A stretch of 64,000 nt of DNA from Minisyncoccota bacterium (GCA_031413715.1 JANOFO010000003.1:11047-75046), one strand, 5' to 3'. Positions 39,542 to 61,646 are shown, counted from the first letter of the stretch. Made by a program: numbers and translations. The notes: generated from the sequence alone by a model not told the origin.

Positions 39542-42500
39542 TTATTTTATATTTATCTTAAATACTAACTCATCAATATTTACTTCAGTTCCTTCATTCT
39601 CAGCGATTTTAATTTGCTTTGCACCCACGGTTTTTAGGAGTTCAACTTTAAATTTATTTATTATTTCTTGGCCATCTGTGTTAGTCGCAACTTCAAGCAC
39701 TACCACATCGCCAGGACTGAGTCCCTGTGCTTTACGCATGTCTTGAATCGCTCGGACAAGCTCGCGATACTGGCCTTCCTGCTTGAGCTCGGGAGTCATG
39801 TTTATATCAAGCTCTACCATAGATTCAATTGAATCATCCGCGCCAATCTCTTTTACATTCAATTCATCTTTAAGGATTTCAATATATTCTTCCTTGAGAT
39901 CTAGATTCTTGACTTTCAGCTGCCAGAGTGGCTGTCTGACTTTTATTCCCGCTTTCTGACGAGCTTCCAATCCTTGCGTGACTATTGATCGGACAGTCTC
40001 CATTTTGGAAAGCAAGTCATTATCAGCTTCGCTTCCTTTCGGCCACGAAGCAAGATGAACGCTTAATTCGTCTGCCTCACTTTTTAATTTCTGCCAAACA
40101 TCTTCTGCTGAAAAAGGCGCGAGCGGGGCTAGGAGCTTGGCTATCTCTTTGAGGGTAAAGTAGAGCGTCTGAAGCGCTTCGGTATCGTGATCCTTTATGC
40201 GGTCGCGAGAACGGCGCACATACCACGTAGAAAGATCGTCGATGAATTCACGGATCGCACGCGTTGGCTCGAGAAGCTTGTAGCTGTCCAAATTCTGAGT
40301 CACAGTATTCACCAGTCGATTGAGTTTAGCGATTATCCATTGATCGAGGATATTGCCTGAAGTCTTCTTCTCAACTTTCTCTAAATCCGTGTCTCTATAC
40401 AATTCATAGAACGCGAGCACATTGTAGAGCAAGTTGAATACTTTATTGTGGAGCTCAGCAACTGTCTTCTCGTCGAAGTTCTTTGATTCACCTGGCTGAT
40501 TGACCGAGTACATCCAGAGGCGGAGAGTGTCGACGCCATATTTTTCGATCATCACCCACGGATCAACAATGTTGCCGAGAGATTTTGACATCTTTTTGCC
40601 TTTCTCATCGAGAATATGCCCGAGGCAGATGACATTCTTGTATGCGCGGCCTCTGCCCATGAGCACTCCAACAGCATGGAGAGTGTAAAACCATCCGCGA
40701 GTCTGATCGATAGCTTCAGATATGTAATCGGCCGGGAAGCCTGTGCCATCTACCCATTCTTTATTCTCAAATGGATAGTGATCCTGAGCAAATGGCATAG
40801 CGCCCGAATCAAACCAGACATCCATAACTTCTTTGACCCGAGTTATTTCTTGCCCATCTTCGGACACGAGCTTTATCTGATCTATGTATGGTCGGTGAAG
40901 ATCGAGTTCGTATTCTTCGTTGTGAGGGACAGGCACGAAAGGCAGCGCACGTACTTCAGCATTCATAAATCTCTTGAAATCAGGAACAAAGACATGCGTA
41001 CCAGCCACCTGATATTCTTTGTTGTCCGGCATGAATAGTCCCGAATTCACATAGCATGCCCATGCCGGACCGCCGTGAGTGATGATCAATATATTCTTAT
41101 CTTTATATGTTTCCTCAAGTTCATACAGGACCTCAGCCGTTCTCTTTTGAACATCTTTGAGTGATTCCCCGCCTCCGATCTTCTCTGTGAACCATTTTAG
41201 TCCTGTGTTCGTATATACATATTTGTGGTATGTATTCCAATCCTTATTATCAAAATCACCAGGGTTTATTTCCTGCAATCGCGGATCATATTTGATAGCA
41301 TCAAGTGACATACTCAAAGTTTCTGCCACAAGATCCGCAGTTTCTTTCGTACGAGTAAAGGGAGACGAAACGATGATATCAATATTGTTAGCTTTGAGCA
41401 GAGAAGCCTGCCTTCTCACTTCTTCTTTTCCTTCTGGAGTCAGATTATCAGTCGCCTGGTTTTTATAGCTCACTAATTCATGCAAGTTACCTTCCGTACC
41501 GCCATGGCGCATGACAAAATATTTGTTGCCGGACTTCTTGGTCTTTTTTTTCATTTCCTCAAGACTGCCGATGACTTCAAGCGTGCCATCTGCCGTCTGC
41601 CATATCGGAAGCGGTGTACCCCAGTAGCGCTCGCGTGATATTGCCCAATCTTTTATATCCTTGAGCCATTCACCGAAACGCCCGTCACGGATATGTGCTG
41701 GCTCCCAATTAATTTCTTTATTCTGATCTATTAACTGCTTTTTGATCTTCTCATCAGACATGCGGATGTACCATGAATCGCGCGCATAGTAGATAAGCGG
41801 GGTCTTACATCGCCAGCAATGAGGGTATGAGTGCTCATATTTTTCCTTTTTGAAAAGCAATCCTCGATGAGCCAAGTCTTTGATAATATCCACTGCAACT
41901 TCTTCATCCTTGACGAATCTACCTTCTAGGAAATCTGTGCCCTTAACAAAATGACCTGTATCATCTACTGTATGGAATTTGGGAAGTCCAACTTTTGTGC
42001 CAAGCTCAAAGTCTTCCTGACCATACATAACCGCAGTATGAACAATGCCGCTACCATCAGTCGTCGTTACGAAATCAGCAGTATAAACTTTGTATGCGTT
42101 CTGTAATTTTTCATCGCCTTTATTAAGCTCCCCAAGATATGGATACAGAGGCTCATATTCGAGGCCAATAAGTTCATTTCCTATAATATCATTATGTACA
42201 ATTTCGATTTTTTGATCTTTAAAAAGTTCAGGAACTCTTGCGGTTGCAACAACATACAACTCTTGTACTCCTTCAACACGCAGAGCTGTGTAAGAAATAT
42301 CCTTACCAACCGCCAAAGCAACATTACCTAGAAGTGTCCAAGGGGTTGTTGTCCAAGCTATGAGATAAACAGTGTCCTTTGTCTCGTTACCCTTGCCCCA
42401 TTTCTGTCCCGGCTTTAAATGAAATTTCGCATATACTGACAGATCCTTGTCATCTTGGTATCCTTGCGCAAGTTCATGTGACGAAAGAGCCGTCCCACAG

Positions 42501-43057
42501 CGTGGACACCAAGGCAAGACCTTGTAGTCCTTATAGAGCAACTTCTGCTCGTTTACTTTCTTTACAACATTCCATACTGACTCTATATATGTATTGTTAT
42601 ATGTGATGTATGGATTATCTTTATCTACCCAATACCCTACTCGATCACGAAATGTATACCAAAGATCAATATATCTCCAAACGCTTTCGCGACATTTCTG
42701 ATTAAATTTAGCAATGCCATATTCTTCTATATCTTTTTTTGATGTAAGGCCAAGTTCTTTTTCTACTTGAAGTTCAACTGGAAGACCATGCGTATCCCAA
42801 CCGCCTTTTCGGCCCACATGATATCCTTGCATCGTCTTGTATCTCGGAATAGCATCTTTGAAAGATTGAGGCTCTAAATGGTGTATTCCTGGCTTGCCAT
42901 TGGCTGTCGGCGGGCCATCGTAAAAAACAAACTCTCCTTTCGGCGAATCCTTCGCGAGTGTCTTCTGGAAAATACTATTCTCTTTCCAGAATTCTAAGAT
43001 TTTCTCTTCTCGGAGCGCAGCTTCTGATTTCTTGTTTTGTATTTCTTTATCTTCCAT
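39542..43057 (-). CDS. ileS: Isoleucyl-tRNA synthetase containing an inserted histidine-phosphatase (phosphoglycerate-mutase family) domain (~aa 505-715)
   Basis: 1171 aa in a single ORF. IleRS blocks: HIGH-type motif (PTANGKPGIHH), editing/CP1 region, WCWRCKTP, KMSKS (KMSKSLGNIVDP), C-terminal anticodon-binding and junction domains. Between ..ISRERYWGTPLPIWQTADGTLEVIGSLEEM and ..LDLHRPYIDQIKL...DVWFDSG lies a ~210-aa segment with the three PGAM hallmarks: FVMRHGGTEGN, SSPFTRTKETA and LIITHGGPAW. Confidence 0.9.
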   Translation of the reverse strand: MEDKEIQNKKSEAALREEKILEFWKENSIFQKTLAKDSPKGEFVFYDGPPTANGKPGIHHLEPQSFKDAIPRYKTMQGYHVGRKGGWDTHGLPVELQVEKELGLTSKKDIEEYGIAKFNQKCRESVWRYIDLWYTFRDRVGYWVDKDNPYITYNNTYIESVWNVVKKVNEQKLLYKDYKVLPWCPRCGTALSSHELAQGYQDDKDLSVYAKFHLKPGQKWGKGNETKDTVYLIAWTTTPWTLLGNVALAVGKDISYTALRVEGVQELYVVATARVPELFKDQKIEIVHNDIIGNELIGLEYEPLYPYLGELNKGDEKLQNAYKVYTADFVTTTDGSGIVHTAVMYGQEDFELGTKVGLPKFHTVDDTGHFVKGTDFLEGRFVKDEEVAVDIIKDLAHRGLLFKKEKYEHSYPHCWRCKTPLIYYARDSWYIRMSDEKIKKQLIDQNKEINWEPAHIRDGRFGEWLKDIKDWAISRERYWGTPLPIWQTADGTLEVIGSLEEMKKKTKKSGNKYFVMRHGGTEGNLHELVSYKNQATDNLTPEGKEEVRRQASLLKANNIDIIVSSPFTRTKETADLVAETLSMSLDAIKYDPRLQEINPGDFDNKDWNTYHKYVYTNTGLKWFTEKIGGGESLKDVQKRTAEVLYELEETYKDKNILIITHGGPAWACYVNSGLFMPDNKEYQVAGTHVFVPDFKRFMNAEVRALPFVPVPHNEEYELDLHRPYIDQIKLVSEDGQEITRVKEVMDVWFDSGAMPFAQDHYPFENKEWVDGTGFPADYISEAIDQTRGWFYTLHAVGVLMGRGRAYKNVICLGHILDEKGKKMSKSLGNIVDPWVMIEKYGVDTLRLWMYSVNQPGESKNFDEKTVAELHNKVFNLLYNVLAFYELYRDTDLEKVEKKTSGNILDQWIIAKLNRLVNTVTQNLDSYKLLEPTRAIREFIDDLSTWYVRRSRDRIKDHDTEALQTLYFTLKEIAKLLAPLAPFSAEDVWQKLKSEADELSVHLASWPKGSEADNDLLSKMETVRSIVTQGLEARQKAGIKVRQPLWQLKVKNLDLKEEYIEILKDELNVKEIGADDSIESMVELDINMTPELKQEGQYRELVRAIQDMRKAQGLSPGDVVVLEVATNTDGQEIINKFKVELLKTVGAKQIKIAENEGTEVNIDELVFKINIK

Positions 43058-43310
43058 ATATTAAAAAACTCGTCCACGTACAGCAATTAAAAATTACTAT
43101 ACAAGGACGAGTTTCCTCGTGGTACCACCTTGCTTACTTCTCATTTTATAGGGCTCTACTCTCCGCCTAGGACGGATTTCTTCCCAATGCCTGTCCGAAA
43201 TAAATATTAGTATTTATGTCGGGCTCAGAGGTGATGCCTGTCCGGACTATTCGGACGGGGCCTCGTCATTGCATCTACCTATAGAATACAGATAAATCAC
43301 TGACTTTGCA
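43058..43310 (-). promoter_or_regulatory. T-box riboswitch leader of ileS (putative specifier AUC)
   Basis: The reverse-strand leader contains AAGCAAGGTGGTACCACGAGGAAACTCGTCC, matching the T-box consensus GGGTGGNACCGCG. This is followed by a terminator hairpin (aaactcgtcc ...38 nt... ggacgagttt) and TTTTTT, ending 5 nt before the ileS ATG. Upstream there are repeated cggacagg stem elements and a candidate specifier ggcAUCAcc (the + strand GAT at 43233-43235). Confidence 0.65.
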
Positions 43311-43314
43311 AGAA

Positions 43315-44055
43315 TTAGATAATACTTCCAACCTTAAGACCAAGCTTGTCGCTTGCTGATTCATTTTGGACTATGATCTCAAGGAAGCGCTTTTCTCCGA
43401 AACCAGAACTCCCTCGAGTCAATGCAGGCTTGCCGTCTTTTGGAACATCAGCTAGGCGCTCGTAAAATTCGAGATCCTTCATGAAATGACTTTCATTCTC
43501 GATAAGGGTTGTCTTGCAGTTGCCGAAGTTATCTACCCTCCATACGAAGTTTTTTTCTCCGAAATCTTCGACATCTACTTCTTTTGCAGGTACATCTTCT
43601 CCTTCGCTAAGCCATTTGGCAAGATACGGTAGGTACTCAAAGCTTCTAAATTGTGAATTGGAAATCCGCAAGGCTTCATCGTGATCGAGAAACTTACTGC
43701 ATACTTCAAACACATCTGTTTCATAAACCTTGGAGAATAGCCCGAGCTTCTTGGCAAGAGGAAAGCAATTCGGCGTTCCTAGTATCAGCAATTTCCCGAG
43801 TCTGCAAAAGCAAAATGGAATACCATTTAGGTACTTTTCCTTATTGCCACGCAAGGCAACATTGATGGAAATAATGCCAGGTGCATCCTTGTAGGCATCG
43901 ATTGTATCGATAAGATCACCCTGAGCCTTTAGGCTCGATTCTACTCCGCAAAAGTTGGTGGAAATATTTTCAAGAAGACCATGGTAACGTGCTACTTGGC
44001 GCGTGCGGGCATTGTCGTCGAGGCAGTCATTGATGATTGTGACAAGTTGTGACAT
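43315..44055 (-). CDS. Hypothetical protein, possibly a divergent DUF62 / SAM hydroxide adenosyltransferase (SalL/FlA-like)
   Basis: 246 aa. C-terminal VWRVDNFGNCKTTLIENE resembles the DUF62 C-terminal ID.FGN..TN motif. A mid-region TPNCFPLAKKL weakly resembles RDIFAPVAAHL. The N-terminal motif is poorly conserved. This is weak, memory-based similarity. Confidence 0.35.
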   Translation of the reverse strand: MSQLVTIINDCLDDNARTRQVARYHGLLENISTNFCGVESSLKAQGDLIDTIDAYKDAPGIISINVALRGNKEKYLNGIPFCFCRLGKLLILGTPNCFPLAKKLGLFSKVYETDVFEVCSKFLDHDEALRISNSQFRSFEYLPYLAKWLSEGEDVPAKEVDVEDFGEKNFVWRVDNFGNCKTTLIENESHFMKDLEFYERLADVPKDGKPALTRGSSGFGEKRFLEIIVQNESASDKLGLKVGSII

Positions 44056-60962: not shown

Positions 60963-61646
60963 ATGGGATTTGAAAATTTTAAAAAAATGTTTGGTATTAC
61001 CGCAGCAATATCAACAGGAATTGCTGCTAACGCTGACGATAATAATAAAAAGGCTGACGCGATTTTCGCTAATCCAGATGCTAAAAAAATAGAGATATCA
61101 GTTGATAGTCCGAAGGATTCGACAAAAAATACAGGTGAAGAAGACCCTATAAACACTTTAAAGCCTGGAGAAAAGTTTAGACAAGTACCCGTCAATATGG
61201 AGCTCGGTGGGATCAAAGCTGAAGGAATGATACTTATCCCTATGCCAGGTGACACAACTAAAAACTATTACTTGATCAAATTCTCTGGAGAAGGTGAAAA
61301 CTTAATAGGAAAGATACTGGCAGCACTCAAAGCTTTAAATCTTAAACCTGGTTCTGGTGAATTACTTAAATATATAAATGATGAAGCCTTTAGAAAGGCT
61401 GGGAAGAGTGTTATGGCTATAGATAAGATTTATACGGAAGCAGAGAATCTAGGACAAAATCAATTTGTCCTAGTTAACGAAAACAGAACCGTAATGATCC
61501 TAAATGCCCTTAAAAATATACAAACTACAGAAATTAGATCTATGACGCAATATGGAACAACAATAGATTATGCAATTTTTGTAACTGGTGAAAAAAATAA
61601 AAGTAGTAGCCCAAATAACGGAGACTATGTAAGTACGAATAAATAA
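60963..61646 (+). CDS. Hypothetical secreted protein
   Basis: Signal peptide (MGFENFKKMFGITAAISTGIAANA). AT-rich, K/N-rich mature part. No domain recognised. Confidence 0.5.
   Translation: MGFENFKKMFGITAAISTGIAANADDNNKKADAIFANPDAKKIEISVDSPKDSTKNTGEEDPINTLKPGEKFRQVPVNMELGGIKAEGMILIPMPGDTTKNYYLIKFSGEGENLIGKILAALKALNLKPGSGELLKYINDEAFRKAGKSVMAIDKIYTEAENLGQNQFVLVNENRTVMILNALKNIQTTEIRSMTQYGTTIDYAIFVTGEKNKSSSPNNGDYVSTNK

Follow-up and report, generated by a model that had tools for sequence, protein, structure and literature searches.

We analysed a 64,000-nucleotide (nt) stretch of DNA from a Minisyncoccota bacterium (GCA_031413715.1 JANOFO010000003.1:11047-75046), referred to here as the window, and observed that ileS, the gene for isoleucyl-tRNA synthetase (IleRS), is preceded on the minus strand by an RNA leader with the parts of a T-box. 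The comparison with related leaders makes it very probable that the minus strand at 43311-43058 forms a functional tRNA-Ile T-box riboswitch. By analogy with studied T-boxes, we also consider it likely that this leader couples ileS to the charging of tRNA-Ile, with transcription attenuation as the most likely mode. A sequence-only reading of the window had placed a T-box leader with a terminator/antiterminator switch here, and this was borne out: the two mutually exclusive helices covary among relatives, and the specifier matches the downstream gene in the ileS, aspS and valS leaders. Three features that mark a T-box by its mechanism were found: a T-box bulge with its antiterminator, a competing helix, and a gene-matched specifier.

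The leader that was folded (231 nt, minus strand) had a fold z-score of -3.9 relative to dinucleotide shuffles. Its parts, along with the regulated gene, were as follows.

43311-43058, minus strand: leader with promoter-like site, the roughly 250 nt directly 5' of ileS
43283-43311, minus strand: promoter-like site, TTGCAA (43311-43306), 17-nt spacer, TATTCT (43288-43283), score 8/12
43223-43272, minus strand: truncated Stem I (Rfam alignment; helix covariation in relatives)
43240-43256, minus strand: small apical hairpin over the specifier, GUCCG-AAUAGUC-CGGAC, 5 bp (folds; comparison with the related leader L009)
43232-43235, minus strand: specifier AUC (43235-43233) and purine A (43232), on the 3' side of Stem I (conserved in relatives)
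43195-43222, minus strand: extra hairpin between Stem I and Stem II, CCGA-C-AUAAAUA-CUAA-UAUUUAU-U-UCGG (fold)
43194-43186, minus strand: linker ACAGGCAUU after the extra hairpin
43151-43185, minus strand: Stem II with S-turn (base-helix covariation; alignment to GAA...AGUA of the Rfam Stem II)
43133-43150, minus strand: single-stranded purine-rich linker UAUAAAAUGAGAAGUAAG, about 19 nt, no fold
43102-43132, minus strand: antiterminator, -12.3 kcal/mol (fold, covariation)
43063-43115, minus strand: terminator hairpin 43115-43065 with six U residues (U6) at 43068-43063, -29.1 kcal/mol (covariation)
39542-43057, minus strand: ileS, 1171 amino acids (aa), the regulated gene (Pfam; TIGR00392 equivalog, 880 bits, cutoff 621)

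The near-consensus T-box sequence that the sequence-only reading had noticed before ileS is present at 43131-43115 (AAGGTGGTACCACGAGG / AAGGUGGUACCACGAGG; AAGGUGGUACCACG covers 43131-43118). Its core, GGTGGNACCNCG, occurs once in the 64 kb, and alone it is not significant, with at least one match in 62 of 100 shuffles. The antiterminator is made of helix A1 (CAAGG, 43132-28, with CCUUG, 43106-02) and helix A2 (ACGAG, 43120-16, with CUCGU, 43111-07; loop GAAA), which enclose the 7-nt T-box bulge UGGUACC at 43127-21. The UGGU of this bulge is complementary to the ACCA 3' end of tRNA, with which it would pair, and it is present in all of the ileS leaders that we compared. Bacterial tRNA-Ile usually carries A73 as its discriminator base. 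The terminator has 26 pairs and a UUU loop, and the 3' strands of A2 and A1 serve again in its 5' arm, so that the two structures are mutually exclusive. Its arms (aaactcgtcc and ggacgagtt, within 43115-43065) are followed by U6, aatat and the ATG at 43057; thus, the strong terminator overlapping the T-box sequence and ending 5 nt before the start codon was found just as had been described.

A permissive local scan of 42950-43450 with the Rfam T-box model, RF00230, gave a minus-strand match at 43278-43100 (model positions 1-219; 37.2 bits, E = 8.8e-07). At the gathering threshold (93 bits in the copy used), no match was seen in the window or in 13 related leaders. The truncation of Stem I brings the score far below this threshold: the alignment has 29 nt in the window where the model has 76 distal Stem I positions. 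The sequence-only reading had named the lack of an above-threshold RF00230 match as ground for giving up its claim; taken literally, this is what was observed, and the match that was obtained is nevertheless full-length. As the match was below threshold yet full-length and unlikely to arise by chance, a comparison with relatives was needed.

We therefore examined the 80 IleRS loci closest to that of the window among 185,579 species genomes (45-63% identity to the window IleRS). All belong to the Patescibacteria, or Candidate Phyla Radiation (CPR): Paceibacterota, Parcubacteria, Nomurabacteria, Kaiserbacteria and others. The motif AGGUGGUACC[A/G]CG lies directly 5' of ileS in 13 of these loci (Patescibacteria, Paceibacteria), and elsewhere in those loci it was seen at one site only, inside a coding region of L007. 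A covariance model (R1; 135 positions, 20 pairs) was built from the 14 leaders of the window and these 13 genome relatives, and a search of 859 kb with it returned exactly those 14 leaders (68-129 bits) and one chance match inside an open reading frame (ORF). Since R1 is circular for its own training set, the independent Rfam model was run on six of the relatives; all six were matched at the homologous place, with 39-62 bits and E-values of 3e-5 to 3e-11, every one of them below the threshold. A metagenome scan with the family pattern, filtered by R1, gave 20 further leaders among the 80 loci listed, and nine of these 20 precede IleRS genes 44-76% identical to that of the window. The comparisons that follow thus rest on 23 ileS leaders (the window, 13 genome relatives and nine metagenome contigs). 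The remaining listed metagenome loci, which failed R1, are probably chance matches to the loose pattern. L086 was rejected as a leader of the reduced type, as it is an ordinary trpS T-box with a long Stem I.

In the 14-sequence discriminator alignment (alignment A1), the antiterminator was 94.9% paired and the terminator 94.3% paired, the latter with 12 pairs changed on both sides; none of 500 shuffles reached either value. When the partners were slid by 1-3 columns, pairing fell to 25-50% (38-50% for the terminator). Column 62 (U/C) covaries both with its antiterminator partner, column 23 (A/G), and with its terminator partner, column 104 (A/G), and column 59 covaries likewise with columns 26 and 107. 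This three-way covariation indicates that selection maintains both of the mutually exclusive helices.

The five modelled helices were further evaluated across the 23 sequences after Infernal re-alignment. They were 92.9% paired, with 15 of 20 pairs doubly changed (80 cells) and a whole-structure covariation score of 0.51 as against 0.19 in shuffles (0/500), the slid controls being 34-51% paired. In A2, all five pairs have changed on both sides. With MAFFT on the complete decoding halves, Stem I of the window and L009 had its 5' strand misplaced owing to their apical insertion; this alignment was replaced by a core alignment with lineage-specific hairpins excised, by the Infernal re-alignment and by an anchor-based count. 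The rows of the window and L009 were excluded from the final covariation count, R1 having misplaced their Stem I. Read from the anchors and free of any alignment, the Stem I helix appears as GAGG/CCUC, GGAG/CUCC, GGGA/UCCC, GAAG/CUUC, GGGG/CCCC, CUGG/CCAG and CCUG/CAGG, and the base helix of Stem II gives the same picture with G-C, A-U, C-G and U-A pairs.

We observed that the specifier follows the gene. The Ile specifier AUC, which the sequence-only reading had suggested together with its trailing A, is invariant in all 23 ileS leaders, and the base after it is A in 20 and G in three. Five sister leaders of the reduced type, all from metagenomes, likewise have an ultrashort Stem I, a Stem II S-turn and a terminator.

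L087:3857-4007(+): specifier GAC, before a bacterial-type AspRS gene
L138:4380-4537(+): specifier GAC, before a non-discriminating AspRS gene (455 bits, cutoff 353)
L128:3676-3829(+): specifier GUC, before a ValRS fragment
L146:126-233(-): specifier GUC
L140:2344-2490(-): specifier GUC

To our knowledge, T-boxes with a short Stem I have been described for ileS only. Separately, three low-GC leaders (L154:778-888(+), L157:7010-7118(+) and L126:2182-2290(+); R1 scores 37-42 bits, one from a human-gut metagenome) have a short Stem I with a Tyr-like UAC, a IIA/B-like element and Stem III, lack the Stem II S-turn, and lie 5' of small ORFs that do not encode aminoacyl-tRNA synthetases (aaRS).

The 5' half of the window leader forms a compact decoding module. 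The base of Stem I is compatible with a K-turn (GC at 43272-71, an AAU bulge, GA at 43267-66 opposite GA at 43226-25, and GC at 43224-23), and above it is a 4-bp helix (GAGG, 43264-61, with CCUC, 43231-28). The fold thus gave the specifier stem and the antiterminator/terminator alternative that had been expected of it, while Stem I itself is truncated and not canonical. It is of the 'intermediate' type; in most relatives, the specifier lies in a terminal loop of 6-7 nt. L009 has an apical hairpin as well (GUCUG/CGGGC), in which changes on one side keep the pairing through G-U. Stem II has a base helix of GGG (43185-83) and CCC (43153-51), the 5' strand AAGAAA, an apical hairpin UCCGUC-CUA-GGCGGA and the 3' strand GAGUAGAG; GAAGAA and UAGA are the invariant anchors of this stem. 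The decoding module as a whole therefore combines the K-turn-compatible GC/AAUGA...GA/GC with GGGAAGAAA...AGUAGAGCCC and a covarying base helix.

The cggacagg elements, taken earlier for repeated stem elements, do correspond to an exact 11-nt direct repeat (CGGACAGGCAT / CGGACAGGCAU, 43244-43234 and 43197-43187, minus strand); the copies, however, belong to two separate hairpins, the Stem I apex and the extra hairpin, each copy being a hairpin 3' arm with its trailing linker. We estimate that chance would give about 0.006 such repeats per 230-nt leader, and a duplication or an alternative fold is possible. The 5' arm GUCCGA (43256-43251) could pair with either copy, and L009 has a parallel 7-nt repeat, CGGGCAG. 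A hairpin at the position of the extra hairpin was seen in nine of the 23 ileS leaders, and the linker in its CAGGCAU form recurs in L001, L147, L152 and L160.

Three modules of studied T-boxes are missing from this RNA. Neither the Rfam alignment nor the fold of the window leader has the distal AG bulge and distal loop of Stem I (interdigitated T-loops) that form the platform for the tRNA elbow, and both the Stem IIA/B pseudoknot and Stem III are missing from the linker that joins Stem II to A1. The long Stem I with its elbow-binding platform is described as generally required by transcriptional T-boxes, and a truncated Stem I characterizes the translational ileS class of Actinobacteria (PMC7583486; for the latter also PMC11297988 and TBDB). 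In a T-box with a short Stem I, deletion of IIA/B lowered tRNA binding about 1,200-fold, and Stem III has been called 'indispensable', since an antiterminator without it binds no appreciable tRNA (PMC7583486). Among the 23 ileS leaders, seven have neither IIA/B nor Stem III (the window and six of its 22 relatives, L001, L006, L066, L081, L148 and L152), six have Stem III only, five have IIA/B only and five have both; the IIA/B motif (CGGGUAAGCCCG...) is thus present in ten and Stem III absent from 12. In the barest leaders, L006, L081 and L148, the extra hairpin is missing as well, and the whole of Stem I through antiterminator takes up about 113-117 nt. The discriminator domain has been defined as Stem III flanked by a purine string, 5'-RRRxG...AA-3' (Li et al. 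2019, as quoted in PMC7583486). This string survives the loss of Stem III: relatives with the stem read AAUGAGAG-[Stem III]-UAAAAAC, those without it AAUGAGAAG-UAA, and in the window AAUGAGAAGUAAG is kept at 43145-43133 although no Stem III hairpin is there.

With so much lost, the RNA might need a lineage-specific helper, such as a K-turn-binding protein of the L7Ae family or some other factor; alternatively, the extra hairpin (43222-43195) might offer a stacking platform in place of the missing pseudoknot. The strong impairment of model T-boxes by the loss of IIA/B or Stem III would favor this, as would the recovery of about 200-fold of the 1,200-fold loss by a plain hairpin after deletion of the pseudoknot and the proposal that K-turn proteins help weak K-turns (all PMC7583486); the window has both K-turn-compatible sequences and the extra hairpin. 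We nevertheless find a helper doubtful. L006, L081 and L148 have no IIA/B, Stem III or extra hairpin and are still conserved with an intact switch, while L003, L009 and L147 carry both the extra hairpin and IIA/B. Since the presence of the hairpin does not complement the absence of the pseudoknot, a substitute role for it is unsupported. L066, which lacks IIA/B and Stem III, has instead a hairpin inserted inside the 3' strand of Stem I; in L160 and L082 the K-turn positions are paired as an ordinary helix, and no candidate for a helper protein was identified.

The same losses, the score under the Rfam threshold and the outright absence of the leader in the close relatives L002, L004 and L054 could also mark it as a relic in decay: an RNA that was once a T-box, has lost its response to tRNA and persists only as a constitutive attenuator or spacer RNA. 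This is highly improbable. The positions that would contact tRNA (AUC and AAGGUGGUACC) are invariant across hosts whose IleRS shares no more than 45-76% identity with that of the window, every helix has compensatory changes, the switch shows its three-way covariation, and the specifier follows the identity of the downstream gene. A relic would not maintain such invariance, compensation and specifier tracking.

We next consider the level at which the T-box would act. Each of the 23 ileS leaders ends in a hairpin of -10.5 to -34 kcal/mol and a run of at least four U residues. The antiterminator, at -5 to -14 kcal/mol, is the weaker structure in all but L104, whose hairpin and antiterminator have nearly the same stability (-10.5 and -10.6). 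Among the 14 genome-derived leaders, the spacer that separates U-run and ATG measures anywhere from 5 to 265 nt. These spacers are AU-rich, and no Shine-Dalgarno sequence was found between hairpin and ATG in the window or the 13 genome relatives. The hairpin with its U-run in all leaders, the variable distance to the ATG and the lack of a Shine-Dalgarno sequence point to transcription attenuation, rather than Shine-Dalgarno sequestration. A -35/-10 pair, with the -10 ending 8-10 nt before Stem I, was found in 19 of the 23 leaders (10 nt in the window); the mean best promoter score was 8.5/12, as against 5.9 in shuffled upstream sequence. A promoter-like site at a fixed distance upstream suggests that each leader is its own transcription unit. 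In L003, L009 and L010, the leader lies 194-265 nt from ileS. The stretch that separates terminator and ileS in L009 holds an ORF of 84 aa (L009:3667-3921(+)), hydrophobic at its N-terminus (MNEKIIKIFGFMGTCLALGMFFALI), which would be co-regulated with ileS.

From the homology with studied T-boxes, we infer tRNA binding, charge sensing and termination as follows. The RNA would start a few bases before 43272. In the nascent RNA, the truncated Stem I would display AUC, tRNA-Ile(GAU) would be bound through its anticodon, and the purines of the Stem II S-turn would pack against the duplex of codon and anticodon. An uncharged tRNA would pair through its ACCA end with the UGGU of the bulge and hold the antiterminator (43132-43102), and polymerase would proceed into ileS; with a charged tRNA, the more stable terminator (43115-43065 with U6) would form and transcription would stop 5 nt before the ATG.

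A switch at the level of translation, or at both levels, in which the hairpin occludes the ribosome landing site like the sequestrator of actinobacterial ileS, has to be weighed against attenuation. In the literature, translational T-boxes are recognized by a truncated Stem I (PMC7583486; PMC11297988; class II of TBDB). Hairpin and ATG are separated by 5-8 nt in the window, L008, L013 and L017, and in L156 an AGGAG is found inside the hairpin 3' arm, 13 nt before the ATG. However, a U-run directly follows the hairpin in every member, and a sequestrator needs none. The ATG is up to 26-60 nt away, and at the 194-265 nt of L003, L009 and L010 it is too far for occlusion; the spacers have no Shine-Dalgarno sequence to sequester, and the 3' arm GGACGAG is set by its pairing with the T-box strand and not by anti-Shine-Dalgarno complementarity. 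We thus regard a translational or dual-level switch as improbable for the family. The L156 leader itself (L156:521-657(-)), with AGGAG in the terminator 3' arm plus a U-run, is a candidate for combined transcriptional and translational control.

Several observations weigh against reading the window leader as a tRNA-responsive attenuator. Its RF00230 score is 37 where the gathering score is 93, and three modules that are important in model T-boxes (the elbow platform, IIA/B and Stem III) are absent from it. Its terminator is only 5 nt from the ATG; as the hairpin ends this close to the AUG, an effect on translation initiation is inseparable from termination. Intrinsic termination is assumed for these bacteria, a crude scan having given 25 terminator-like sites as against 12.4 in shuffled sequence; this simple scan did not list the T-box terminator, probably owing to its internal mismatch and long stem. 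No tRNA-Ile gene was found in the window or in the 120-160 loci fetched, and the GAU anticodon and A73 of the host tRNA are predictions.

Compared with known T-boxes, the window leader is closest in its decoding half to the actinobacterial ileS T-boxes of Mycobacterium tuberculosis, M. smegmatis and Nocardia farcinica ('class II' of TBDB; structures 6UFG and 6UFM, cited in PMC7583486). It shares with them the ileS target, AUC plus a purine, an 'ultrashort' or 'intermediate' Stem I without elbow platform, the K-turn at the base of Stem I, the adjacent Stem II S-turn, the same bulge, and A1/A2. It differs in that those leaders sequester the Shine-Dalgarno sequence and so act on translation, and have IIA/B and Stem III, reported as required, whereas the window has a hairpin with U6 and none of these; the host phylum also differs (Patescibacteria, as against Actinobacteria for class II). 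With the transcriptional T-boxes of Firmicutes (RF00230; B. subtilis tyrS, S. aureus ileS), it shares a terminator 5' arm that reuses the 3' half of the T-box, the 7-nt UGGNACC bulge, a specifier matched to the aaRS gene, the K-turn and the Stem II S-turn. Unlike it, the Firmicutes leaders contain both IIA/B and Stem III; their Stem I is about 90 nt long and stacks on the tRNA elbow through its AG bulge and distal loop, and their specifier sits within an internal loop that has an S-turn of its own. The glyQS T-boxes of B. subtilis and G. kaustophilus, the accepted 'minimal' natural T-boxes, are likewise reduced and transcriptional, and have no Stem II or IIA/B; their reduction runs the other way, with the long Stem I and Stem III retained and Stem II lost, whereas in the window leader it is Stem II that is retained and the long Stem I, IIA/B and Stem III that are lost. 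The leader thus has the intrinsic terminator of class I without its long Stem I, and the decoding module of class II without its IIA/B, Stem III or Shine-Dalgarno sequestration. These sequence features are best summarized as those of a reduced hybrid, in which a decoding module resembling that of class II is joined to a terminator resembling that of class I.

In a tree of IleRS, all 14 genome-derived leaders fall in one half, and 12 of them inside a 17-member subclade. In the close relatives without the leader, ileS lies directly behind argS or behind a plain promoter. This distribution indicates that the leader is inherited within the Paceibacteria subclade, with occasional loss. T-boxes have been surveyed in Firmicutes, Actinobacteria, Chloroflexi, Deinococcus-Thermus and a few Proteobacteria, and ileS is a T-box target in non-Firmicute phyla other than the present one (PMC2494555); the short-Stem-I model of TBDB has been applied mainly to Actinobacteria. 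The phylum of the window is named Minisyncoccota at NCBI and is placed in the kingdom Bacillati. Since ileS is a T-box target in these other phyla as well, and the CPR stands in the same kingdom, an old, vertically inherited ileS T-box is plausible.

The sequence-only reading had linked the leader to an IleRS-phosphatase fusion. The leader does stand before such a fusion: a histidine-phosphatase domain (His_Phos_1, cobC/PspA-like) is inserted in the catalytic domain of the window IleRS, at residues 514-669 (Pfam). It is, however, not specific to the fusion, for 67 of the 80 relatives bear the fusion and have no leader, and the 972-aa IleRS of L104 has no phosphatase insertion, yet its gene has a T-box leader; T-box and fusion are therefore independent features. 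As all 80 genome relatives align over nearly the whole 1171 aa of the window IleRS, the insertion seems to be common within the clade. The IleRS ORFs of L008 and L066 have 1347 and 1338 aa, about 170 aa beyond that of the window, which suggests further insertions or extensions in some members.

In the window, the leader is preceded by a 246-aa ORF (43315-44055, minus strand) with its stop at 43315, whose only match, to the SAM hydroxide adenosyltransferase C-terminal domain, stayed below threshold (23.6 bits, cutoff 25.5); in L054 and L007, argS takes this place directly before ileS. Two near-consensus sigma-70 promoters were seen on the minus strand. One, at 44243-44214 (TTGACA-18-TATCAT, with TG), immediately follows argS and precedes the 246-aa ORF; the other is at 47974-47945 (TTGACA-18-TATAAT, 12/12). 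The host thus appears to use standard promoters, and that of the T-box would be much weaker. At the Rfam gathering thresholds, the window contains three tRNAs only (Tyr, Cys, Leu), and no second T-box was found in its 64 kb by the Rfam gathering scan, the R1 model or the core-motif search. R1 also matched 61339-61475 (17.7 bits, E = 0.22); this site has no T-box core and falls within an ORF of 239 aa, and it was rejected as chance.

A full-text literature search, with most subscription papers outside its scope, gave no report of a T-box in Patescibacteria, the Candidate Phyla Radiation, Parcubacteria or Saccharibacteria, and an earlier description is possible. Gene regulation in Patescibacteria has been called virtually unknown, and riboswitches have been raised only as future tools for expression control (2024 perspective, PMC11665869). 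We give an even chance to the broader proposal that Patescibacteria carry an undescribed class of naturally minimal T-boxes, consisting of a specifier hairpin, the Stem II S-turn, a purine string and the antiterminator, which would work co-transcriptionally without elbow contact, IIA/B or Stem III and regulate ileS, aspS and valS.

T-boxes are a paradigm of RNA-RNA recognition in gene control and targets for antibiotics and engineering, and the requirements for their modules have so far been defined on a few Firmicute and actinobacterial examples. If functional, the leaders described here would contradict two rules, the need of transcriptional T-boxes for a long Stem I and the indispensability of Stem III, and the minimal ones would define the true minimal core for tRNA sensing. 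They would also place the T-box in one more deep branch of the Bacillati, in favor of its being ancient. As natural test cases, they may reveal the minimum needed to read the identity and charge of a tRNA during transcription, and they could serve as a compact tRNA-responsive part for genetic tools in Patescibacteria. Annotation by the Rfam threshold misses this whole reduced group. For the biology of the CPR bacteria, the leader is one of the rare regulatory elements identified, and it suggests that these amino-acid-scavenging cells still monitor the charging of their tRNAs.

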